NCBI GenBank assembly: GCA_035539375.1
Contig: DATLIP010000086.1
Location: forward strand, 16,848 to 80,847
Direction: 5' to 3'
Source: Bdellovibrionota bacterium
GTDB lineage: Bacteria; Bdellovibrionota; UBA2428
DNA length: 64,000 nt
Part shown: piece by piece, positions 13,315-54,391 of the stretch
Position numbering within the stretch: position 1 is the first letter of the stretch
Layout: each line of letters opens with the position of its first letter
Program-made: the position numbers and the translations under genes
Notes under the pieces: generated by a model
Seen by the model: the letters and a program-made list of their open reading frames with translations, nothing else
Told to the model about the DNA's origin: nothing
Database searches by the model: none

Positions 13315-15714
13315 ATGTTGAGGCTCTTTTTTTCATTCTTAATCGCGCTGGTCTTTTCGGTCGACGCGCGCGCCGAGTCGATCATAAAAGTTGTCATCAA
13401 CGGCCAAGAAATGGAACTCGATGAGAGTGCCGCTAAGAGCTTTGACTACGACGATAGCGCTCACCCGATGCGTCTCTACGTTCGCGATCAATCGAACCTC
13501 GTCGGTGTTGACGGCAAGGAAATTCCGCCCGGCACCTTGGCCCTCACATGGTCCGAATCCTTTAAAGCGACGTTTCGTAAAAACTCGCGTCCCTATAATC
13601 CGGCTCGCCTCGATGTTGTAGCGTTTAAATTCGGTGGTGAAAAAATCCTCATTGATGCAAGCCATCTGTCGAAGATCCGCTACGCGGATCTCGGCGAAGG
13701 CAAACCACTTAAGATTGTTGTGCCCGCAAGCGTGAACTTTGTCGACTCCAAGCAGCAGCCCATCGCCACGCGTGAAGGTGAAACCTACCGTACGAACGAA
13801 GTTTTCAAAGCTCAATTCAAGCTAGTGGCCAAGCCTCTCGAAGAGGGCACGCTCGTCGTTCCGGCCGTGGCTCCGCGGGCCACCTTGGTGGATGAAGTCG
13901 AACCCCCGCAAGCAATTCCCGTAGAGCACGACGATGAAACCCCCGCGCCACCGATCGTCGTGGGCCCTAACGTGCGAGTGAACAAAGATTTCTACGAAGC
14001 CTTCAATTACACCCGTACGGTTAAGCTAAAGAACGTTCACGGATTCAACGAAGATTCCGAGTATTGGGTGAAGGGCGAAGATGCCGTCAACGGTATGTAC
14101 TTTTTACAGGAGATTCCCAACGGAAAACTTCAGAGCCTCCCCCGCAGCATTGCAATCAATAAAGTGCACATGGTGCCTTACGAACACATGAGTCGAGTGA
14201 CCGTGTCCCTTAAAACAAAAGACCACGAGATTGCCCCCGGCACCGTGATCAAAGAGGTCGACCACTCCAGCTCCCAAGTGAGATTTAAAATTGTCGGCGA
14301 TCCCACAGAGACGCTCTTTAGCGTCTCGCGTGAAGCCTATCTCAAGAGCGTCAAGTCCGACATCGACATGAAGCGAGCGCAGGCTCAGGCGAAGCGCCTG
14401 GGTGGCTCGGTGACGCCCGGATTCGACGAATACACGGTGACGGCACTCGGTGGGGCCCTCTCGCTTCCATCCTCCCTGAGTGATGAGACCAAGAGCGATC
14501 CTCGCACGAGCGTGGCGGCGGGTGAAGTGATCGAGATCCTAGGTGAGGGTGCAGGTGCTGATAAAAACATGTACATCGCTCGTCGCAAGGGACATCCGGA
14601 AACGATTTTCTACATCCCCGAAGATCAGTTGACCGACAGCCAGATGTTTCAGTCACGGCAGGCTCAACTGAGCGATGCCACTTTAGAGAGCTCAGGACAT
14701 GTGACAAACTTGAACCCTGCTAAGCGTTCGGCCATCGATGAATCTTTCGACGAGACGACTCAGACCTACCATCATCGCAATTCTCGCGCCAAGACAGGTT
14801 TCCTCGGCGATGCCTCGGCGTTCACGCTGTCGTCTCCGCCCTGCCAACCTTTTTCGAATTACTCTCCGAAACAGCTCAGCTCTTGGGCCTCAACGCGTAA
14901 GTATTACCGCTCTGCGATCATCGCAGCTGCCAATGAGCACAGCATCGACCCCGCCATCTTGGAAACGAGCATCCAAATTGAGACGGATTTCGGCGACAAC
15001 GTCGAAAACGAAACGGAAATCGAAGAGATCATTGCCCAGCTCAAAGCAGAAGAAGTCCAAAAAAAATTGGCCAACCCCAAATACCAAAAGCAGGTGATCA
15101 CGCGGGCTTCGGCTAAGGCTTATGCCATCGCGAACAATTTAGAGCAGTGGGGGCGCGGCCCCGCTCAAATTGGACCCGCTTGCGCAAAACGACTTGGTCT
15201 TGAGTGGGACGTTGATAAGCCAGAACCTTTTCCACCGGTGCCCGAATCCTACCGAGCGGCGCACCCCAATTCGGTTTATATTCCCGAAGTGGCGCTCGAC
15301 GCGCAGGCACAGCTTTTTAAAGAAGAAATGCAAAAAGCCCGTAGCTTCACAGATTCCAAAGGCAAAACTTGGGATTTGCGTAAGCAGCTTTTTGGTCGAG
15401 GCTCGGCAGAAACGGCTCGCAACTTGCTCGCGATGTGGAACCGCGGGGAGCCACGCGTGATGGACTCTTACCGCGCTTACATCGAAAAAAATCGCAAGAT
15501 GCCCGATCATTTCGGCCAGGTTTGGTCGGCACGTCCGTACATGCAATACGATCGCGTGCTCTACGGGCAAAAAATCAACCGCCGGCACGTTTACTATGTG
15601 GCCGGTCTCTGCGGCGATGCAGATCGCGACAGTCTGCTCGCACGCTTTAGCCGCGAATACGGCTACGACAATGGCAAGTGGACGACAGCCGTGAATTCCA
15701 AAGGGGCGCGCTAA
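13315..15714 (+). CDS. Secreted 799-aa protein with C-terminal lytic-transglycosylase (SLT)-like domain; N-terminal ~500 aa unknown
   Basis: Signal peptide MLRLFFSFLIALVFSVDARA. C-terminal motifs AANEHSIDPAILETSIQIETDFG, GRGPAQIGP and LLAMWNRG resemble the SLT family-1 motifs (ES..., GLMQI, AYNAG). An acidic insert separates the first two. Confidence 0.55.
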   Translation: MLRLFFSFLIALVFSVDARAESIIKVVINGQEMELDESAAKSFDYDDSAHPMRLYVRDQSNLVGVDGKEIPPGTLALTWSESFKATFRKNSRPYNPARLDVVAFKFGGEKILIDASHLSKIRYADLGEGKPLKIVVPASVNFVDSKQQPIATREGETYRTNEVFKAQFKLVAKPLEEGTLVVPAVAPRATLVDEVEPPQAIPVEHDDETPAPPIVVGPNVRVNKDFYEAFNYTRTVKLKNVHGFNEDSEYWVKGEDAVNGMYFLQEIPNGKLQSLPRSIAINKVHMVPYEHMSRVTVSLKTKDHEIAPGTVIKEVDHSSSQVRFKIVGDPTETLFSVSREAYLKSVKSDIDMKRAQAQAKRLGGSVTPGFDEYTVTALGGALSLPSSLSDETKSDPRTSVAAGEVIEILGEGAGADKNMYIARRKGHPETIFYIPEDQLTDSQMFQSRQAQLSDATLESSGHVTNLNPAKRSAIDESFDETTQTYHHRNSRAKTGFLGDASAFTLSSPPCQPFSNYSPKQLSSWASTRKYYRSAIIAAANEHSIDPAILETSIQIETDFGDNVENETEIEEIIAQLKAEEVQKKLANPKYQKQVITRASAKAYAIANNLEQWGRGPAQIGPACAKRLGLEWDVDKPEPFPPVPESYRAAHPNSVYIPEVALDAQAQLFKEEMQKARSFTDSKGKTWDLRKQLFGRGSAETARNLLAMWNRGEPRVMDSYRAYIEKNRKMPDHFGQVWSARPYMQYDRVLYGQKINRRHVYYVAGLCGDADRDSLLARFSREYGYDNGKWTTAVNSKGAR

Positions 15715-36651: not shown

Positions 36652-38805
36652 ATGCCGGTGCGTTTCCTCAAGGGGATCGGCGACAAACTCTCCGAAAAAT
36701 TCTTAAAGGCTGACATCACTTCGCTGTGGGATCTTTTGCTGCTCATGCCGCGCAAGTACCTCGATCACCGCAAGCCGATGAGTTTTGGCGAGCTCGACAT
36801 GGCCGCGCGTATGGAGACGGTGGTCTTCGCTCGCGGGCGCGTGGAGTCTTACCACGAACGGCGCGGTGGTCCGCGCGGACGTTCGCTCTGCGAAGCCTTG
36901 GTGCGTATCGAACAGGGCGTCTCTGCGCTCCCGGCCTATGTGTACTTCGTGTGGTTCCATGCGCAGCAAAAAAACTTCGTCGAGCAGAAATTCCCACCCG
37001 GATCGGAGCTCACCTTCTCGGGCAAGGCGCAGGCCTTTCGCGGTCGCATTCAAATCTCGCACCCCGACATCTACGATCAAAAGCGTTCCGAAGACGAGCC
37101 TTGGCACCACGGCGCCTACGTGCCCATTTATACCGAAATTTCGGGCATCTCTTCGCGCGTGCTGCGCAAGATCCTCTACCAAGCGCTCCATCGCCCCGAG
37201 ATGGAAACGCTTCGGCAAACCTTACCGCCGGAGATCGAGGAGCGGTTTGAACTTCCGACACTGCTCGCATCCCTGCGCGAGTTGCATTTTCCCGAGCATG
37301 TGGAGCCGCACCCTGAGCATGGTCTATGGGGATCAACTTATTTCAAGCGCCTGGTCTTCGAAGAACTTTTTTACATGTCGCTCTCGCTGCTGCATCAGCG
37401 CGTGATGTGGGCCATGGACAAGAGTCTTGAGTCGCAGGTGCCGGTGCTCACGAGTGCAGATGCGGTGATGAAAGAGTCCGCAAAAAAACTCCCCTTCGCA
37501 CTCACCGGTGATCAGGCCAAGGTGCTCGAGCAAATCGCCGCGGACCTCGCGTGCAAAAAAGAAATCCTTCCGATGCACCGGCTCGTACAGGGCGACGTGG
37601 GCAGCGGCAAAACGGTGGTGGCGTTTTTATCGATGATCGCCGCTACGGAAGCCGGCTACCAGAGCGCTCTTATGGCGCCCACCGAGATCCTCGCCGATCA
37701 GCACTACCAGAATTTTGTGCGCATGTTCCCCGAGCGCGCCCAGCGCGTGATTCTGCTGAAGGGCTCACTCACCGCCAAGCAAAAAAAGCTCGCCCGCGAG
37801 GCTATCGCCGCTGGCGAGGTGGACGCCGTGATCGGCACGCAGGCGCTGATCGCTGAGGGAACCGTTTTTGCAAAGCTGGGCCTCGTTGTGGTCGACGAGC
37901 AGCACCGTTTTGGCGTTGCTCAGCGCATTGCCATGAAAAAGAAAAACGACACCGGCATCATTCCGCATTTGCTCGTGATGACAGCGACGCCGATTCCGCG
38001 CTCGCTTGCGCTAAGCCTCTACGGCGACCTCAGTCTCAGCGTGATCCGCGAAAAACCCCCAGGCCGTCAGCCCATCAAGACCCACTTGATATCGGACGTG
38101 CAAATCGATGGCCTCAAGCGCCGCATCCGGGATTTTGTGAACGAGGGCAAACAGATCTACCTCGTGTATCCGCTCGTCGAAGAGTCCGAAGAGCTCGACC
38201 TGCGCGACGTGCAGAGCGCCTTCGAAGAATGGACGCGCGAATTCGACGGCGTGAGCATCGGGCTTCTGCACGGCAAGATGAAAGCCAAAGACAAAGAAGC
38301 CGCCATGGCGAGCTTCAAAGCCGGTGAGACGCGCGTCCTGATGGCCACCACGGTGATCGAGGTCGGCGTCGATGTGCCCAACGCCTCGGTGATGGTAATC
38401 TTCCACGCCGAACGTTTTGGTTTGTCGCAGCTGCACCAGCTGCGCGGCCGGGTGGGGCGCGGCGCCGAGGCGAGCCTCTGCGTGCTGGTGGGCCCTAAGA
38501 ATCTCGGCGCGCAGTCCAAGGAGCGGCTCATGGCCATGGTGGAATCCGACGACGGGTTTTTTATCGCCGAAAAGGATCTCGAACTGCGCGGACCCGGGGA
38601 ATTTCTCGGCACCCGCCAGAGTGGGGTGCCGGCCTTTCGGGTGGCCCAAATCATCCGCGACCTCAGCCTTATGGAGCTGGCCCGCACGGCCGCCGAAGAG
38701 GTGTTGCGCGAGGACCCCTCCTTAGAAAAACCCGAGAGCGAGGTTCTACGTAAGGGCCTGAAAATATGGTGGGGTCAGCGCATGGAACTCACCCAAGCCG
38801 GCTGA
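36652..38805 (+). CDS. recG: ATP-dependent DNA helicase RecG
   Basis: Trimmed to MPVRFLKGIGDKLSEKF. Wedge domain, Walker A GDVGSGKT, VVDEQHRFG, and helicase C motifs QLRGRVGRG. The start is uncertain by a few codons. Confidence 0.9.
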   Translation: MPVRFLKGIGDKLSEKFLKADITSLWDLLLLMPRKYLDHRKPMSFGELDMAARMETVVFARGRVESYHERRGGPRGRSLCEALVRIEQGVSALPAYVYFVWFHAQQKNFVEQKFPPGSELTFSGKAQAFRGRIQISHPDIYDQKRSEDEPWHHGAYVPIYTEISGISSRVLRKILYQALHRPEMETLRQTLPPEIEERFELPTLLASLRELHFPEHVEPHPEHGLWGSTYFKRLVFEELFYMSLSLLHQRVMWAMDKSLESQVPVLTSADAVMKESAKKLPFALTGDQAKVLEQIAADLACKKEILPMHRLVQGDVGSGKTVVAFLSMIAATEAGYQSALMAPTEILADQHYQNFVRMFPERAQRVILLKGSLTAKQKKLAREAIAAGEVDAVIGTQALIAEGTVFAKLGLVVVDEQHRFGVAQRIAMKKKNDTGIIPHLLVMTATPIPRSLALSLYGDLSLSVIREKPPGRQPIKTHLISDVQIDGLKRRIRDFVNEGKQIYLVYPLVEESEELDLRDVQSAFEEWTREFDGVSIGLLHGKMKAKDKEAAMASFKAGETRVLMATTVIEVGVDVPNASVMVIFHAERFGLSQLHQLRGRVGRGAEASLCVLVGPKNLGAQSKERLMAMVESDDGFFIAEKDLELRGPGEFLGTRQSGVPAFRVAQIIRDLSLMELARTAAEEVLREDPSLEKPESEVLRKGLKIWWGQRMELTQAG

Positions 38806-38846
38806 CGTTGACACTTTGCGTTATTCTGGCTAGAGCCTTGGCCCAA

Positions 38847-40538
38847 ATGCTCCGTCGTTTCGCCGTCTTTGCGCTCGTCTTCGCTGCGTCTGCGGCCGGC
38901 GCGACGACGCCCGAAAAGAAGCCCAGTGTTCCAGGCAAATGTGATGGGCTTTTCGATAAGCTCGAGGAGCGTCAGCGCGAAGCGCTGAAGCATTTGGTTG
39001 GAGATGTCGAAGGCATGATCGAGCGCGGCGAGATGACACGTGCTGAGATTGAAGAAGCGGTGTTGCGCTGGTCGAAGATGTCGGATCAGGCCTCGGTGAT
39101 TGGCCACGATCCCGAGGGCTTTACGGCCAAAATCGAAAGCCTTGACGACATCAGATATTACCAAATGCAGATCATGGACGGCATTTGGGTGGTGCTGCGC
39201 GAGAAGATCTTTGATCCCTCACGCACAAAAATTTTCTACCATTCTATGGTGGAATCAAAGATTTTCCCAAAACCACTTCGTTTGCTGATCAATGACCTTT
39301 CTCTGGCTTTCCAGAATCCCAGTGGCCGAGTGTCCACGCGTGGGGCGGCGTCCATTCACCACATGCAGGCTGCGGTGACCACCCATGCCATGCTGACGCC
39401 CGAAAAACTCTGGCAGAGTTTTCAGCAATTGCACGACATCGGCGATGTTCAAACGCAGCGTGAGTGGATTGCGGTGGCCCTCTTAGAAGAGGCGGCGACG
39501 TGGCCACAGCGTCGTGCGATGTCCTTTCAATCGACATTGTTAAATTTGCACATGCATGACCTTGCTGTCTTCGACGAGAAACCGCGTCGGGCCAAAGTCA
39601 ATTTTGCCACTCCCTACCAAATTTTCGAGAACATTGTGCTCACCAAAATCTGGCTCGACCACCATATCAGCTACCTCAAAGTTGAGGAGTCATCGGAAGG
39701 TACTGAGGCTCGATTCACCTACGACGCCGATAAGGACATAGAAAAACAAGTTCACGCTCGCCTCTTGGAAGACGTGATCACGGCGCAGCTGAATCTTTTT
39801 GAGATCTGGAAAAATCGCAGCAATCTCGAGCTTCAGAAACAACTCGAAGTCATGATGGTCGACGCCAGGCATTTGGCCGAGGCCCTTTACGTCGAGCGCC
39901 ATCCGGATCGCGACACCCTCACGGCTCCTGAGCTACAAGCGGTTTACGACATCGAGCAGAAAATTCGTCCAGTCGTGGAAGTGGAGCCCGAGCCCGTGCG
40001 CGAAGAGCTTACCGAGCCCGAAGAGATCGCGGCGATGAGCCTGGCGGAAACTTTCGAAACCACATTGGTTCGCGAGCGCGAGCCGGAAAGCGCCACCGCT
40101 CTGCCGACGCTTCCGGTGAGCTTCGCACCGTTGCACCTCGGTCCGGACGGAAGCTTGTCCATGGCCCAACTCGACGCCGGTTCTGGTGCGTGGGTGCTCG
40201 CAGCCATCGATGGGCACCAGGCGGCCGCCACTCAGCGCTGGACGGTACGCCTTACTCGTGATGCGCAAAAGGAATGGAAGTTGGTGGCGAGATATGCGGA
40301 CAACCGGTCGCAGCAATTTTTTGAGCGAATGAACCGGGCTTTCGCCACTATCCTTTCTAGCGGATACTATGCATCGATCGGGCAACCCGGCTTTCCGTAC
40401 GTGAAAAACATTCGCGGCGGAGAGGATGTTTTTGAATTTTTGCTCGGCAATTCACGTCGGGTGATCTACCACGTAGACGCTGAACGCCGAGAGCTACTCG
40501 TGACGAGCTTCAGCGCTCACCACAAAGTGAGTTATTAA
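38847..40538 (+). CDS. Signal-peptide protein (563 aa) with C-terminal RelE/ParE-like domain; N-terminal ~460 aa unknown
   Basis: Trimmed to MLRRFAVFALVFAASAAGA. The C-terminus RDAQKEWKLVA...VKNIRGGEDVFEFLLGNSRRVIYHVDAERRELLVTSFSAHHKVSY parallels E. coli RelE (ERALKEWRKLG...LRGMPDCYKIKLRSSGYRLVYQVIDEKVVVFVISVGKRERSEVY). Confidence 0.55.
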   Translation: MLRRFAVFALVFAASAAGATTPEKKPSVPGKCDGLFDKLEERQREALKHLVGDVEGMIERGEMTRAEIEEAVLRWSKMSDQASVIGHDPEGFTAKIESLDDIRYYQMQIMDGIWVVLREKIFDPSRTKIFYHSMVESKIFPKPLRLLINDLSLAFQNPSGRVSTRGAASIHHMQAAVTTHAMLTPEKLWQSFQQLHDIGDVQTQREWIAVALLEEAATWPQRRAMSFQSTLLNLHMHDLAVFDEKPRRAKVNFATPYQIFENIVLTKIWLDHHISYLKVEESSEGTEARFTYDADKDIEKQVHARLLEDVITAQLNLFEIWKNRSNLELQKQLEVMMVDARHLAEALYVERHPDRDTLTAPELQAVYDIEQKIRPVVEVEPEPVREELTEPEEIAAMSLAETFETTLVREREPESATALPTLPVSFAPLHLGPDGSLSMAQLDAGSGAWVLAAIDGHQAAATQRWTVRLTRDAQKEWKLVARYADNRSQQFFERMNRAFATILSSGYYASIGQPGFPYVKNIRGGEDVFEFLLGNSRRVIYHVDAERRELLVTSFSAHHKVSY

Positions 40539-40553
40539 TAAAAGGAGAGAACA

Positions 40554-40796
40554 ATGAAGATCAAAAATGTTATGGCAATGATTCCTTTGGTGGTTTCAAC
40601 TTTCGCGCTGGTCGCGAAGTCCGAACAAAAATTCAAAACGGCTGCAGATCCCTGCCCCAAGGGCACGCACGAAGTGATCGTCACCGAAGAGTATAAATAT
40701 CAGGTTTCCAAAGACACGAAAGAAATCACGACGGTCAAAGACACTTCAAAAGGTTGTCGCGACAACAAAGATTCACAGATCGAGGAACGCCACTAG
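40554..40796 (+). CDS. Small secreted two-Cys protein
   Basis: SD aaaaggagag sits upstream. Signal peptide MKIKNVMAMIPLVVSTFALVA. 80 aa. Confidence 0.55.
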   Translation: MKIKNVMAMIPLVVSTFALVAKSEQKFKTAADPCPKGTHEVIVTEEYKYQVSKDTKEITTVKDTSKGCRDNKDSQIEERH

Positions 40797-40811: not shown

Positions 40812-41009
40812 TCAGCTGTCTTTAGGCGGCGTGACGTCTTTTTCTTTTTCGGCGAGTTTCTTTTTGGCTTCTTCGTCCTTGCCTTCGAGGCCTTCGCGGA
40901 ATCCGCGAATGGCTTTGCCGAGCGAAGGTCCGATGCCCGCGAGTCGCGAGGGACCAAAAAGAAGAAGCAAGATGATGGTGATGAGAACCAGTTCGCCGAA
41001 GCCAAGCAT
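40812..41009 (-). CDS. tatA: Twin-arginine translocase subunit TatA/E
   Basis: MLGFGELVLITIILLLLFGPSRLAGIGPSLGKAIRGFREG followed by a charged tail. Confidence 0.9.
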   Translation of the reverse strand: MLGFGELVLITIILLLLFGPSRLAGIGPSLGKAIRGFREGLEGKDEEAKKKLAEKEKDVTPPKDS

Positions 41010-43076: not shown

Positions 43077-43727
43077 ATGAAAATTCAAAACGCCATTTCC
43101 GTATTGATGTCCCTTGTCGGCGCCACTTCGGCCCTGGCTTACCAAGTGCCCAGCGTGGACGTCGAAATCACCGTGACTCTTAACGCCGCCCAGAAAAAAG
43201 AACACAACAAAGAAACGACAAAAGAAACCCGCTTGGCGACCAGCATCTGGCAAGACGAATCGAGCGGCCGTACCTTCGTGGCCCTCAAAGAGCTCGAGTC
43301 TAAAACCAGCCAGCGCTTGGCGCTTTCAGCGGGCTTCGGTGAAGGCCGCGCCCTTACGAGCCTCATGATTCGCGGTGAGATCAAAGCCATCCAGGCGACC
43401 CGCGAGGGCGGCTCTAGCGATGAGCTGAAGATCATCTCCGTCACCAATGCCCAGGGCAAGATGTGCAAGGTGGATGCAAAAGCCCAAACCTCGCTTTTTG
43501 AGTGCCTCCTACGTGAGGACTTTAAAAACGTGCTCAACTCCAATGCCCCTCTCAAAAATTCGATGAAGATCTTCCGCAGCTCGGGCGCAAGCACCGTAGA
43601 GGATTTCCTCTTCGTGGTGGACATGCAGAGGAACTTCTTCGCAGAGATCGCCATTGTGGCCCGCCGCGAAGCCCGCGAGAGCAAAGAAAGCATGATGGCC
43701 ACCGACGTCCCCCATACTTTGAAATAG
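43077..43727 (+). CDS. Secreted hypothetical protein
   Basis: Signal peptide MKIQNAISVLMSLVGATSALA. No motif recognised. Confidence 0.55.
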   Translation: MKIQNAISVLMSLVGATSALAYQVPSVDVEITVTLNAAQKKEHNKETTKETRLATSIWQDESSGRTFVALKELESKTSQRLALSAGFGEGRALTSLMIRGEIKAIQATREGGSSDELKIISVTNAQGKMCKVDAKAQTSLFECLLREDFKNVLNSNAPLKNSMKIFRSSGASTVEDFLFVVDMQRNFFAEIAIVARREARESKESMMATDVPHTLK

Positions 43728-43736
43728 TTAGCTCGG

Positions 43737-43795
43737 GTGCCAGGTATAGGTTCCTGGAACCTATACCTGGCACTAGCTGTCTAATTCGTAGACAG
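43737..43795. repeat. 37-bp perfect palindrome followed by a second small hairpin
   Basis: gtgccaggtataggttcc t ggaacctatacctggcac (43737-43773), then ctgtcta attcg tagacag (43777-43795). It begins 10 nt after the stop at 43727. Confidence 0.9.
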
Positions 43796-43947
43796 GCGCC
43801 GTGATCTTTACCAAAGTTTTGCCTGATTTAGCCTTTTGTTAAGATTGGGTTAAGCCAAAAACCCCATGGGATCATGGGCTTAGCCATAAGGTCAAAAATC
43901 CGTCATCTCGGCACGCCCTTTGCTCCTACTCCGTTAAGGGGTGGAGT

Positions 43948-44760
43948 ATGCAAACCATACGTTTTAACAATTCGGTCTTCGCAGCCATGGCGTCACTGAC
44001 GCTCGTGATGTCCTGCGGAATCAAGCAAGTTGAAGGTACGGGTTCGTCCACCAACGCTGGCCGCTATAACAACGACATATATGATGACAGCGGCTCTTCT
44101 TCGGATTGGCAGCGTCTGTGCTCCAAGCCCGTGCTCTTCACTTCGGTGGGCGCGCTGGAAAGTGGACTTGAGAAGTACTTCTTTACGACCAAATACGGTG
44201 TGCCCGCGTATCCCGGCGAAGTTCGCGACTTGGAACTGCCCGTAAACTGGTGCTTTAAAATCGCCAGCGGCGGTTCGCGAGCAGCCTTCCGTATCGAATA
44301 CGAAGACCACTTCGGTGGTGGTTGGTACGAGATGTCGGCCTCCAAGAGCTCGAATCCTTCGAGCGCTTCTAAGGCTCCGATTCTCTTCCATTCGGAGATC
44401 AACACGAGCACCAACGTGCTCGACGTGATCTTCCTCGATTCGCAAGGTTTTACGCAAATCACCGGTCCTAAAGTTGGTGATTATTACGAAGCGACGATTC
44501 GTTTCGCGAACTTGCCTACCGAGTCGGATTACACCAACGCGCAAATCGCGAGCATCAAACAGAAGTGTCAGAGCGGCGAATGGACCGTGGCCAAGTGCCT
44601 TGGTTACAACATGCCCTCCACGTTCTGGTGGGAAGACCAAAACCAAAATCCGTCGAACAACACGCTCGAAATGGCGCGTGAGATGCTCGACGGCGGTGGC
44701 GGCGCCGAAGCCGGCACGATCGGTACCATGAAGTTCCGACTGAGCGATGTGCTCTGGTAG
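43948..44760 (+). CDS. Hypothetical lipoprotein
   Basis: AAMASLTLVMSCG is a lipobox. 270 aa, family unknown. Confidence 0.6.
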   Translation: MQTIRFNNSVFAAMASLTLVMSCGIKQVEGTGSSTNAGRYNNDIYDDSGSSSDWQRLCSKPVLFTSVGALESGLEKYFFTTKYGVPAYPGEVRDLELPVNWCFKIASGGSRAAFRIEYEDHFGGGWYEMSASKSSNPSSASKAPILFHSEINTSTNVLDVIFLDSQGFTQITGPKVGDYYEATIRFANLPTESDYTNAQIASIKQKCQSGEWTVAKCLGYNMPSTFWWEDQNQNPSNNTLEMAREMLDGGGGAEAGTIGTMKFRLSDVLW

Positions 44761-44796
44761 GAATTTGGAAAATTAGGGGAATAACTAGGGGGAATT

Positions 44797-45348
44797 ATGA
44801 AAAACTTAACCAAGAATCTACTGCTCGGACTGCTCGCGATCACCTTGAGCGCTTGCGGATCCAACGATAACGAATACGGCTACGGCCAGTATTATCCGGG
44901 AGCCTTCTCGGGCATGGCTTGCCAAGAGCTGGGCAACGCGCAAAAGCTCGGAGTGTACTTTGGTACCTTCGGCAACGGCGCTAAGTTCGGCATCGACATT
45001 TACCAGTCGACGGGCAACCAAATTGCCGCAGTAGGCGACATCTACATTCCGGATATCCAGCGCTTCTGGAACCCCGGCATGTACACGCCAGTAGGCCAGA
45101 CTCAGCAATTCGTAAGCTGTCTGACTTCTAACGGATACAACGGTACGCTGACCACGCAAGGCACAGGCGCTTATCGCACTATCGAAGTGGTGCTCCAAGG
45201 CTCGAACGTAGCGATCACACTGGGTGCCAACTTGCCCGGTACCTCGAACCGTTCGCAACTTGCCGGTAACAACATCATCGGCCCCGCGTATGTGCAGATG
45301 AACGGTGCCGCGGACATCTTTGTTTTGACTGAAGATTCGCCTTGGTAG
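44797..45348 (+). CDS. Hypothetical lipoprotein
   Basis: LLGLLAITLSACGS is a lipobox. 183 aa, Gly/Asn/Tyr-rich. Confidence 0.6.
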   Translation: MKNLTKNLLLGLLAITLSACGSNDNEYGYGQYYPGAFSGMACQELGNAQKLGVYFGTFGNGAKFGIDIYQSTGNQIAAVGDIYIPDIQRFWNPGMYTPVGQTQQFVSCLTSNGYNGTLTTQGTGAYRTIEVVLQGSNVAITLGANLPGTSNRSQLAGNNIIGPAYVQMNGAADIFVLTEDSPW

Positions 45349-51234: not shown

Positions 51235-52704
51235 TTAAGCGGCTTTTTTCTTGTCGCCGGACTTGGCGTCTTTTTTCTCGGGCGTTTCGCTGCCCCGGAG
51301 TTCGTCGATTTGTTGATTGAGTATCTTTAGTGCGACGGCGAATTCAGCTTCAGCTTTGGCTAGCTTGGCTTTGAGCTCTTCGTTCTGTTTGCGCAGCTCG
51401 GTGTCGAGAGTCGGTTCTTTGCGTTCTTTTGTCAGCCGGAAAACGTCCTGACTCATGATTTCGTTGAGCTCTTTGAGACTAGTGAAATCGTTGCGCAGCT
51501 TCTCGAGATAGTTTTTGTTGACGATGGTTTCGTCATCGGTGAGTCGCGCTTGTTTGTCTTTTTCGTCAGCCGCGTTTTGATTGGCGCTCGAGGTGAGCGA
51601 GATGCGCTCGCCTTTTTTCTCGGGTGTGTCGCCGATCACGATAGGATCGTTGAGAATCTCGCTAAGGTCTTTTTCGCTGTGCGAAGTGACGGTCATGCGT
51701 GAGAGGTCATTAGTCTCGGCTACGGGAACCGAAGGCTTGGCTTCAATGAGCGGCAAGTGAGCCGTTGCAGGGTCGAGGTTCGTCGAGGGCTTCACGTGGT
51801 GAATCGAAAAATAATAGCCCAAGTGACCAGCCGTCTGCGCAGGCGTTCCGAAATGGATGCGGGTCACGAGGAACATGGGGTCAGCGAATTCGGTCTCCGC
51901 TTTGCTCGTGCCGCCCAAAATGGAGAGGTTGTTCACAGCCTTCACGAGGTGGTGAAATTCTTGAAACAACACGCTGGTTTTGAGTGTCGAGTTGTGGAAA
52001 TTGCTCAAGGCCTGCGCAAATTCATTGCGCAGTACTGAAGTGAGGTTGCCTTTGGAGTGGGCCGGAACGCTGAGCACGATCTTGTTGCGATCGGTGCCGA
52101 ATCTCAGTTCAAAGGCTTCGTCGATCTGTGATTCGCCATGTTTGCTGCGGATGTGACCCATGCACAGACCCATCAGCGCTTTCTTGAGGGTTTCTTCTTT
52201 GACGCCAAAGCGACCGGCAAAGAGTGAAAGCTTTTGCGTGATCGCATCGAGGTCTTCTTGTTTGGCGATCTTGGCAGACCCAGCTTTGTGTTCTGGGCTC
52301 AAAAAGAGCGGCAGGTGAATGTCGGTGGCCAGGGCAAAGGAATGGTGGATGATGCCCGCGATGTAGCTGAGATCTGCGCGCTCGATGGCCGGAAAAAACC
52401 CGCTGAGTTCGAGCGTCGTAAAGGGAACGGTAGTTTTTTCAGGCGCAGGTTCACCGAACATGAAAATCGGTCCTTTGAAACCCAGGTCGCGCAGCTCTTT
52501 GAGCCCTTCGAAACCCGTGTGTTCGATATGGAAGGAATCGATGAGCGCCGCGACACCTGTGGAGTCGAGGTGTTCGCTCGGGATTTGGGAGATCTTGGTG
52601 GCATGGCGAACCAAATAGGGCGCACTGCTCCTATCGAGTTCTTTTTGCAAACGGGCGCACGATGCATCGTCGCCCGAAATGAGCCAAACCACTTTCATGC
52701 CCAT
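51235..52704 (-). CDS. Receiver-like N-terminal domain + unknown middle + C-terminal coiled-coil protein
   Basis: The N-terminus KVVWLISGDD...ALIDSF...GPIFMFGE is patterned like a CheY-type receiver. The C-terminal ~100 aa is heptad-rich and Lys/Glu-rich. Confidence 0.45.
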   Translation of the reverse strand: MGMKVVWLISGDDASCARLQKELDRSSAPYLVRHATKISQIPSEHLDSTGVAALIDSFHIEHTGFEGLKELRDLGFKGPIFMFGEPAPEKTTVPFTTLELSGFFPAIERADLSYIAGIIHHSFALATDIHLPLFLSPEHKAGSAKIAKQEDLDAITQKLSLFAGRFGVKEETLKKALMGLCMGHIRSKHGESQIDEAFELRFGTDRNKIVLSVPAHSKGNLTSVLRNEFAQALSNFHNSTLKTSVLFQEFHHLVKAVNNLSILGGTSKAETEFADPMFLVTRIHFGTPAQTAGHLGYYFSIHHVKPSTNLDPATAHLPLIEAKPSVPVAETNDLSRMTVTSHSEKDLSEILNDPIVIGDTPEKKGERISLTSSANQNAADEKDKQARLTDDETIVNKNYLEKLRNDFTSLKELNEIMSQDVFRLTKERKEPTLDTELRKQNEELKAKLAKAEAEFAVALKILNQQIDELRGSETPEKKDAKSGDKKKAA

Positions 52705-52813: not shown

Positions 52814-54391
52814 ATGAACGAAAACAAGAACCTAAGCCGCCCGGGTGACGCATCAAGTTATTCCGACGTCTTTTTCATATCCTGCGACCGCCACGACAAA
52901 GACCGCATCGAGGTGCAGTTTGGTTTTGATGGTTTGGTGGATTCTACCGAGAAGTTTTTCAACTTCGATATCGATTTTGTGGTCTTCTCGCCCAAAACCT
53001 TGGGGCTCTTGGAGTCACAAAGCGTGGAGTCCATCCGGGCCGAATTCCAGTCCTATTTCCGCCTGCACTCCTACGTCTCCAATCCGGACTCTGAATTTTC
53101 GGTAGATCGCGTGCTCGAACGTCTTGAGGTTCTCAAAGAGGACTTCGATGTGCGCTACCTACGCCTCTTTGCGGTGGAGCTAGACGGTTACCTCAAAGGA
53201 CAAAAACGCAAGGTGAAGAATCACCTGATGCTTTACAAAAAGAAAGCCTTCTCCACCGAGGGTGCCTTAGCGGACCTCGAAGAGGTGCGCCAGGTGATCA
53301 GCCGTTTTCGTGAAATCCCGCAAAGCTTTCGCGCCAAGGACGAAGAGCACGCTCAAAAGTTTTTGGCGGACTTTGAACTCCTCAACGAATACGCCTCGCA
53401 CCTCTATGTGCAGTTCCTGGCGATGACCGATGCTCAGCTCAAAGAATTCGACGTTTCACACCCGATCAAGCACAAGGCGCAGTCGCTCGGCGTCGAGGAA
53501 GCCGCGTTTCGCGCCCAGAAGAGTCTGCTTCTGGGGGATATGGACTCCAGCTGGCACCATAATCGCAAAGAAGATTTGTACCTTCGCCGGATCTCTTCGC
53601 TTAAAAAGTACTTTCACCGCGCTCTTTTTATTCAGGTCACCAGCAACTCACTAGAGCGCAAACTCTTCGTTCCGGTTTACGGCATGTCCGCCGCCCTCGC
53701 TGCCGCCTGGACGATCATGGTGCAGCTCTATGCCACGCGTAACATGATCGACGGCGTGGAGATCTCCACCCTCGCAGTCATCTCGGTCGGTATCTTGGCC
53801 TACGTGGCCAAGGACATCATGAAAGACTTCTTCCGTCGCTACTTCTACCAATCGGGTCGCCGCTGGGTGCCGGATTTCGAGCGCAAGCTTTTTGCCAAGA
53901 CGTACAAGAAGCCCAAGTACATCGGAATGATCCGCGAGTACCTGCGTTTTCTCGACACCTCGGAGTTGCGCAAAGAGATCGTCGAGCAGCGCTATGCCGT
54001 GGAAGGTGGCGAAGTGGAGCGCGCCCTGGGCGAAGACATCGTGCACTTCAAAAAGAAGGTCTCGCTCGATTTGACCAACATGGATTACGACGATCAATTT
54101 CCGTGGGGTCTGCGCGAGATCTTGCGCATGCGTCTCGACCACCTCACGGTGTCGATGGAAGACGCCCACAAGCGTCTGCCGGTGCTCTACTCTTCGGGGC
54201 AACTAGAAGAACGCATGGGTCGTCGGCTCTACCACATTTACGTGGTCGCCCAGATTCGGGCGCGCGGTAAAGGGGCACAAGATTTTGCGGCGTCGGTCAA
54301 AGCCTATCGCGTGACGCTCGACAAGAACGGTGTCATTCAGACCACGCAAATTCCGTGGACCTCGCTGATCCACACGCCGGCAGATTCTTAG
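52814..54391 (+). CDS. Hypothetical membrane protein (central TM hairpin)
   Basis: 525 aa. TM pair VPVYGMSAALAAAWTIMVQLY and ISTLAVISVGILAYVA. No family recognised. Confidence 0.5.
   Translation: MNENKNLSRPGDASSYSDVFFISCDRHDKDRIEVQFGFDGLVDSTEKFFNFDIDFVVFSPKTLGLLESQSVESIRAEFQSYFRLHSYVSNPDSEFSVDRVLERLEVLKEDFDVRYLRLFAVELDGYLKGQKRKVKNHLMLYKKKAFSTEGALADLEEVRQVISRFREIPQSFRAKDEEHAQKFLADFELLNEYASHLYVQFLAMTDAQLKEFDVSHPIKHKAQSLGVEEAAFRAQKSLLLGDMDSSWHHNRKEDLYLRRISSLKKYFHRALFIQVTSNSLERKLFVPVYGMSAALAAAWTIMVQLYATRNMIDGVEISTLAVISVGILAYVAKDIMKDFFRRYFYQSGRRWVPDFERKLFAKTYKKPKYIGMIREYLRFLDTSELRKEIVEQRYAVEGGEVERALGEDIVHFKKKVSLDLTNMDYDDQFPWGLREILRMRLDHLTVSMEDAHKRLPVLYSSGQLEERMGRRLYHIYVVAQIRARGKGAQDFAASVKAYRVTLDKNGVIQTTQIPWTSLIHTPADS

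Follow-up and report, generated by a model that had tools for sequence, protein, structure and literature searches.

RelE-like domains are overwhelmingly components of intracellular toxin-antitoxin systems, in which RNases of the RelE type normally depend on the ribosome, and an exported member is unusual. Colicins carry no Sec signal, are freed by lysis proteins, are plasmid-borne and are always encoded with an adjacent gene for a tightly bound immunity protein. The closest described exported form is 'Tox-RelE', defined by Zhang et al. 2012 as a head of BECR fold on polymorphic toxins exported by Sec and the type II secretion system (T2SS), together with RHS repeats, HINT and Imm54 (PMC3482391); it was represented by a single instance, in Paenibacillus elgii (PMC3482391), and a 2026 classification still calls RelE-like proteins predominantly intracellular (bioRxiv 10.64898/2026.08.28.747851). 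Our analysis concerns a gene for an orphan protein of 563 amino acids (aa) in a 64,000-nucleotide (nt) stretch of a Bdellovibrionota assembly (GCA_035539375.1, contig DATLIP010000086.1, positions 16,848 to 80,847), here called the window and numbered from its first letter. By its predicted fold, this protein can be placed at family level solely in the RelE/ParE superfamily. An initial annotation of the window had read it as a secreted protein with a RelE/ParE-fold toxin-like domain at its C-terminus and no adjacent antitoxin; we find this observation to be largely real and the interpretation built on it partly supported, while the accompanying statement that no secreted RelE fusion had been described is wrong, as Tox-RelE was described in 2012 (PMC3482391).

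Architecture and predicted fold of the protein

The gene is a single unbroken open reading frame (ORF) at 38847-40538 on the forward strand, encoding 563 aa (P0001), with a coding-like pattern of GC content by codon position (GC1>GC2<GC3) along its whole length. Its product is 100% identical to the NCBI entry 'hypothetical protein VM901_09815 [Bdellovibrionota bacterium]', and the start at 38847 was chosen by independent gene callers on two public contigs. A longer ORF from the ATG at 38766 was rejected, as it overlaps the end of recG and the gene callers start at 38847. The features of the gene and its product are as follows, with isoelectric points (pI) where they help to tell the regions apart; P0002 and P0003 are the two relatives described further below, and AF2 denotes AlphaFold 2.

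38847..40538, + strand: whole gene, 563-aa orphan protein and stop codon (ORF list, database identity, codon-position GC)
38847..38903, + strand: aa 1-19, MLRRFAVFALVFAASAAGA, predicted signal peptide of Sec type with cleavage between AGA and T (highest hydropathy window, AxA site)
38904..39953, + strand: aa 20-369, orphan domain at the N-terminus, predicted to be all-helical; acidic (pI 5.6), with one conserved Cys, C32 (family scans, P0002 alignment, AF2)
39954..40130, + strand: acidic, Pro/Glu-rich and poorly conserved linker, aa 370-428 (pI, identity, model confidence)
40131..40238, + strand: aa 429-464, conserved extension on the N-terminal side of the toxin-like module, with predicted short beta-strands (invariant residues, AF2)
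40239..40535, + strand: predicted RelE/YoeB-like domain (RelE/ParE superfamily, BECR fold), aa 465-563, basic, pI 9.8 (AF2, Foldseek, sub-threshold profiles)
40518..40535, + strand: conserved C-terminal tail HHKVSY, aa 558-563, candidate active-site segment (P0002 tail HHKVEY, alignments)

The last 119 residues were modelled with AF2, template-free and from a two-sequence alignment. The resulting model has a predicted local distance difference test (pLDDT) score of 63, with core blocks at 70-79, a predicted template-modelling score (pTM) of 0.62, and a beta-alpha-alpha-beta4 topology followed by a tail; its elements are a strand at 22-25, helices at 27-40 and 45-61, and strands at 75-79, 84-89, 93-100 and 105-113. 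This strand-helix-helix-four-strand order is the one described for RelE-like BECR RNases (bioRxiv 10.64898/2026.08.28.747851). A Foldseek search of the Protein Data Bank (PDB) with this model gave best 50 matches that are nearly all RelE, YoeB, YafQ, HigB and ParE proteins, together with the Helicobacter pylori toxins HP0892 and HP0894; the top match is the RelE of Thermus thermophilus (E=6.3e-4), and target-normalised TM-scores are 0.55-0.70. In a separate, likewise template-free AF2 model of the full-length protein, which again shows the RelE topology, the sole confident Foldseek matches were again RelE, YoeB and ParE toxins, located on the C-terminus, and the best match among the viral models of BFVD is a phage 'Cytotoxic translational repressor', the name given to RelE. 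These models predict, at moderate confidence, a compact alpha/beta domain of about 90-100 aa of the kind that characterizes the superfamily, with a short strand, two helices, an antiparallel meander of 3-4 strands and a C-terminal tail, and we consider it very probable that the C-terminal ~100 residues adopt the RelE/ParE fold, as first suggested from the sequence and now by the AlphaFold and Foldseek check proposed for it. The insecticidal toxin Txp40 of Xenorhabdus nematophila (PDB 7xbj) also occurs among the Foldseek matches of the C-terminal model (40179-40535), at a probability of 0.98 over 67-72 aligned columns; Txp40 may contain a RelE-like subdomain.

HMMER, run with the whole protein as query over 1.84 billion cluster representatives, recovered three proteins including the query itself. 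P0002, of 573 aa, comes from a contig of about 45% GC and is 38% identical over residues 95-563; it shares the complete architecture, running from a signal-like N-terminus through the N-terminal region with its conserved Cys and a variable, acidic linker to a C-terminal domain ending in HHKVEY. P0003 is a 193-aa fragment, 70% identical, that follows recG on contig L004. This contig ends in Nextera adapter sequence (CTTATACACATCTGACGCTGCCGACGA, 2763-2789), so the last ~14 residues of the fragment (VSYTHLTLPTICSV) are an artefact of the public metagenome assembly. Word-indexed searches of 5.8 billion proteins with the full-length sequence, a two-sequence profile and a C-terminal profile returned the query or nothing, and four scans of genome_contigs and metagenome_contigs with full-length and C-terminal alignments returned no relatives; nor did tblastn find in the window any paralogue of the two modules or of the 80-aa ORF that follows the gene. 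The family is extremely rare and lineage-restricted.

Comparison of the two full-length homologues shows that the C-terminal domain and residues 201-240 are the best-conserved regions, the domain being 46-49% identical as against 33% for the proteins overall. The domain is basic in both, with a pI of 9.8-10.1, compared with 9.7 for RelE, and its invariant residues include K520, E526, E530, R537, R538, Y541, H558, H559, K560 and Y563. As references for the active site we took K52, K54, R61, R81 and Y87 of RelE and E46, R65, H83 and Y84 of YoeB. MAFFT pairs R538 with RelE R61 and the tail with RelE R81-Y87, in an alignment that is not significant; the register given by hhalign, extended by hand and likewise not significant, places R538 opposite YoeB R65 and H558 opposite YoeB H83, such that the HHKVxY tail lies opposite the H83-Y84 region of YoeB. 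On these weak alignments the domain looks more like the RNase branch (RelE, YoeB and YafQ) than like ParE.

The basic domain is directly preceded in both homologues by an acidic stretch: residues 370-464 have a pI of 4.4 in P0001 and 4.5 in P0002, contain indels and show the lowest identity of the protein. In the full-length AF2 model the linker at 370-428 has a pLDDT below 35, and low-confidence strands are predicted in the extension at 429-431, 437-442 and 449-451, where the residues P428, L429, P433, G435, L437, W449, D455, A459, A461 and T462 are invariant in or near it. Residues 20-369 are 30-50% identical to P0002 and include conserved blocks such as QREWIxVALLEEAA, and the N-terminal 440 aa have no match in Pfam, NCBIfam, PADLOC or PHROGs. 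The full-length model has an overall pLDDT of 40.7 and predicts the N-terminal region to be helical at a pLDDT of about 40, a level at which the model does not settle its fold; Foldseek matches of this region to designed helical repeats, Exo70 and Txp40 were disregarded, their probability being 0.35 or less.

The N-terminus, MLRRFAVFALVFAASAAGA followed by TTP, has a basic n-region with two Arg, a hydrophobic core of 13-15 residues and an AxA-type site, and is the sole strongly hydrophobic stretch of the protein by hydropathy. We assigned it as a signal peptide by inspection of its n-h-c organization and AxA site, in agreement with the initial annotation. The equivalent N-termini, MLRRFAPFALVFAASAAGA in P0003 and MISQRAHKILAVFFTLKSVSVSASGA in P0002, are also signal-like, and a signal-peptide-like N-terminus is therefore a trait of the family, present in three of three proteins. 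Tat was rejected as the main export route: no Tat consensus comes after the RR pair, and P0002 lacks the pair altogether, which makes Sec the more likely route. A lipoprotein was also rejected, as no lipobox precedes C32. Judged by its sequence, the N-terminus would provide the secretion signal that is expected of polymorphic toxin systems of the Tox-RelE type.

Genomic context and neighbouring genes

The gene lies in the order pyrB-carA-x-carB-greA-recG-[563 aa]-[80 aa], followed by a convergent tatA and a peroxiredoxin gene and then a gene for NDH-2, with dnaK, lon and lepA farther out. The stop codon of recG is at 38803-38805, and two further features flank the coding sequence:

38808..38836, + strand: weak promoter-like element, TTGACA-17 nt-TAGAGC, between the recG stop and the ATG (read from sequence)
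40554..40796, + strand: 80-aa ORF that follows after a gap of 15 nt, behind a strong AAGGAGAG ribosome-binding site; its N-terminus is signal-like and it has two Cys (no family match)

The promoter-like pair ends 10 nt upstream of the ATG and is also conserved on the related contig L004. At the P0002 locus (contig L003, 104-137) a similar arrangement, TTGACC-16 nt-TATATT, ends 6 nt 5' of a GTG start. The element is tentative because a consensus scan did not call it. A Shine-Dalgarno sequence is absent before the start codon of both full-length homologues (38806-38846; L003 104-137), so these transcripts may have little or no leader.

The surroundings recorded at the outset, with recG upstream, no small antitoxin-like gene on either side and a signal-like ORF of 80 aa with two Cys lying 15 nt downstream, are confirmed by the ORFs and family scans. 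No small antitoxin-like or immunity ORF flanks the gene in the ORF list or in scans with Pfam, NCBIfam and PADLOC: upstream is recG, downstream are the 80-aa ORF and then tatA, and neither an adjacent gene of RelB, YefM, ParD or HigA type, as type II toxin-antitoxin modules have, nor a downstream immunity gene such as Imm54 is present. The 80-aa ORF has no match in Pfam, NCBIfam or PADLOC. It is probably co-transcribed with the 563-aa gene, and any functional link between the two products would be conjectural; the P0002 locus has no such ORF, a convergent gene for a class I tRNA synthetase starting 16 nt past the stop, and the 80-aa ORF is therefore not a conserved partner.

Several further observations concern the wider locus. 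The tatA/E gene (PF02416, E=1.4e-14) lies at 40812-41009 on the reverse strand, convergent to the 80-aa ORF, and a terminator-like hairpin is found at 40824-40839 between the two. Three ORFs of 216, 270 and 183 aa stand in a row at 43077-45348 (+), with hydrophobic signal-like N-termini and no Pfam match on record; the GC content of this stretch is 0.51-0.55, lower than that of the housekeeping genes, and the three may be lineage-specific exported proteins encoded as a cluster. Further large orphan ORFs, of 799, 489 and 525 aa (13315-15714; 51235-52704 (-); 52814-54391), have no Pfam match at E<=1e-5; apart from such ORFs the region is one of housekeeping genes.

A possible exported RNase effector and its alternatives

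Beyond the ORF, its architecture and conservation, the predicted fold and the lack of a neighbouring antitoxin, which the data establish, we infer export, catalysis, target, delivery and self-protection. The best reading of these data, which we hold tentatively and with somewhat less than even confidence, is that the protein is a Sec-exported RNase effector of RelE/YoeB fold acting outside the cytoplasm of the producer. We propose that it consists of two modules, an orphan N-terminal region, probably helical throughout and about 350 aa long, and, beyond the acidic linker, a C-terminal module that is basic and spans about 100-135 aa. The C-terminal module, with a fold of the RelE/YoeB-type (BECR) endoribonucleases, would act as the RNase, with R538 on strand beta3 and the His-His-Lys-x-x-Tyr tail lying, on the non-significant alignments, where RelE and YoeB carry catalytic residues. 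It would act on RNA in a prey or competitor cell, whether mRNA on the ribosome, as RelE and YoeB do, or free RNA, and the helical N-terminal region may supply targeting or entry. Export from the cytoplasm would protect the producer in place of a dedicated antitoxin, and the acidic segment N-terminal to the domain could additionally mask it. In favour of this reading are the RelE topology and Foldseek matches of the two AF2 models, the conservation and high pI of the domain, the signal-like N-termini of all three proteins, the lack of an antitoxin gene at either locus and the precedent of Tox-RelE heads on Sec/T2SS-exported toxins (PMC3482391). In its most far-reaching form the proposal is that a predatory or competitive member of the Bdellovibrionota has moved a ribosome-dependent mRNA endonuclease of RelE/YoeB type out of its toxin-antitoxin context and fused it to a new helical carrier with a Sec signal, as an immunity-free effector that stops translation in prey, with the acidic pre-domain maybe serving as a built-in inhibitor; taken as a whole, this fuller version is rather unlikely.

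Several observations weigh against the exported effector. The tail had been described as tracking Escherichia coli RelE block by block, and this likeness could not be detected statistically. With a RelE query confirmed to be exact against the PDB, BLASTP gave no alignment at E<=100, and the identity in a MAFFT alignment is 19%. Sequence searches of the PDB (phmmer and profile) retrieved no RelE, only chance matches to EccD5, fluoroacetate dehalogenase and teneurin-4. The Pfam family ParE_toxin (PF05016) matches profile positions 1-77 of 89 at 13.5 bits (E=0.11), below its cut-off of 23, and the best PHROG match, phrog_1213 'RelE-like toxin', is also sub-threshold (E=0.022, positions 3-85 of 88). 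In favour of the fold, the best or near-best match in two independent profile libraries is a RelE/ParE family covering nearly the whole profile, though sub-threshold in each. The domain has no NCBIfam match, and its counterpart in P0002 matches neither ParE_toxin nor any other Pfam family. A comparison by hhalign with a small YoeB alignment built from PDB sequences found a sensible register, at a probability of 1.6% and P=0.03, which is too weak as proof. As BLASTP and the PDB, Pfam, PHROG and hhalign comparisons are all non-significant, the block-by-block likeness is a motif-level impression; the domain lies below the gathering threshold for membership of a RelE/ParE sequence family, and the evidence at the level of sequence is only suggestive. 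The 119-aa model is itself of moderate confidence (pLDDT 63) and was built from a two-sequence alignment, and in the weak alignments available counterparts of RelE K52/K54 and YoeB E46 are not clearly conserved.

The same holds for the biological setting. The locus is a housekeeping core and no toxin island, and the gene has no linked secretion system, immunity gene, RHS/HINT or delivery domain. The protein contains no RHS, filamentous-haemagglutinin, HINT, pre-toxin or Imm domain in scans with Pfam, NCBIfam, PADLOC and PHROGs. The initial annotation had invoked polymorphic-toxin logic, by which the N-terminal region would recur with other toxin heads; among the 1.84 billion representatives it occurs with no different head, a weak test as the family has only two full-length members, and both of these carry the same C-terminal head, so that there is no polymorphism. 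With three proteins found and none of the RHS, HINT, pre-toxin or Imm features, neither the repeat and HINT arrangement nor the variable heads of polymorphic toxins are seen in this very small sample, and that part of the interpretation lacks support. Furthermore, as RelE-type RNases normally need ribosomes, an entry route to the cytoplasm of the target must be assumed, and the predatory lifestyle of this metagenome-assembled genome is taken from its phylum label only.

Many of these points would be accommodated by a co-opted, non-toxic RelE/ParE fold, in which the protein serves a housekeeping role in the periplasm or at the surface and the C-terminal domain is a binding or structural module. 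The housekeeping locus, with recG synteny kept in the 70%-identical relative, the fixed architecture without head swapping, and the absence of an immunity or antitoxin gene and of any mobile-element signature are as expected from such a protein, and so is the lack of conserved counterparts of RelE K52/K54 and YoeB E46. It is harder to reconcile with the strictly conserved basic/His/Tyr tail and the beta3 Arg, which on the weak alignments occupy active-site positions of the RelE family, and with the high pI of the domain, which is typical of RNA-binding toxins; in addition, we know of no well-documented non-toxic RelE-fold domain outside the cytoplasm. We regard co-option as unlikely, if less so than the alternatives that follow.

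A digestive or scavenging RNase, exported to break down free RNA independently of the ribosome, be it prey RNA in predation or extracellular RNA, draws on the same evidence of fold and export as the exported effector. The structural matches include HP0892 and HP0894 of H. pylori, for which ribosome-independent RNA cleavage is reported, and a digestive enzyme rather than a toxin would make immunity unnecessary, which fits the absence of an immunity gene. A nutritional enzyme would not be expected to be so rare, the family counting 3 proteins in 1.84 billion representatives; this explanation also fails to account for the large conserved N-terminal region, and no direct evidence bears on the substrate, so that we consider it improbable.

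The acidic residues ~370-464 could alternatively keep the toxin masked, as an antitoxin or pro-region within the same chain, up to the point of processing or of a trigger, making the protein a self-neutralised fusion of toxin and antitoxin. In both homologues the acidic stretch (pI 4.4-4.5) adjoins the basic domain (pI 9.8-10.1), and conserved residues and predicted strands are found at 428-464; the antitoxins of RelBE and YefM-YoeB bind through acidic C-terminal segments and are encoded upstream of the toxin. The linker, however, has no detectable likeness to antitoxin families and is the least conserved region of the protein, and docking cannot be judged from a full-length model of such poor quality. 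This arrangement, which is compatible with the exported effector and not exclusive of it, is very improbable as an explanation in its own right.

Equally improbable is that the fold assignment is an artefact, with a C-terminus unrelated to RelE/ParE and a misleading AF2 model and sub-threshold matches: every sequence test is below significance, three of the five models have a pLDDT at or below 54 and the best 63, and the Foldseek E-values are modest (6e-4 to 0.07), but the same family emerged from separate AF2 runs on two different inputs, the best 50 Foldseek matches belong almost uniformly to one superfamily, independent near-top matches in Pfam and PHROG cover 85-95% of their profiles, and the order of secondary structure matches exactly.

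Relation to known toxin systems

If the exported effector is correct, this gene represents an exported, antitoxin-less protein of RelE/YoeB fold borne by an unknown carrier domain, from a phylum noted for predation. It would point to a second route by which the toxins of toxin-antitoxin systems become weapons between cells, and would give researchers both a new delivery or entry domain and a candidate factor in the killing of prey. An inactive domain would instead make the protein a rare example of co-option of a RelE fold beyond the cytoplasm. In both events the case is a small one, comprising a predicted structure and a family of three sequences. A literature search for a secreted RelE in Bdellovibrio found nothing relevant.

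The RelE/ParE type II toxins (RelE, YoeB, YafQ, HigB and ParE) are the closest relatives in structural terms, with which the protein shares the predicted fold, the order of its elements, a core of about 95-100 aa and a basic pI. The likeness to RelE and YoeB may extend to an Arg on beta3, within an RhhhY motif, and to a C-terminal His/Tyr tail that resembles the ...RYHY of YoeB and the R81...Y87 of RelE. Counterparts of RelE K52/K54 and YoeB E46 are not evident, and while these toxins are free-standing cytoplasmic proteins of about 90 aa, here the domain is fused behind 464 aa that start with a signal peptide, in a protein that has no antitoxin upstream or downstream and falls below every family threshold.

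Colicin D and colicin E5 offer a parallel in overall design, with an N-terminal region presumably used for reception and translocation, a linker and a C-terminal RNase of BECR fold; the head of the 563-aa protein belongs by its predicted fold to the RelE-like group, not to the colicin-like group. The resemblance to Tox-RelE lies in a RelE-fold domain that closes the C-terminal end of a long protein with an N-terminal Sec signal, presumed to be delivered to other cells. The 563-aa protein differs from it in having no RHS or filamentous repeats, no HINT releasing peptidase, no pre-toxin domain, no Imm54 gene and no evident head swapping, and it comes from another phylum, where its gene stands in a housekeeping locus. 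An exported head of RelE fold is therefore already known in kind, and what would be new here is its orphan, probably helical carrier, in a setting free of RHS, HINT and immunity components.

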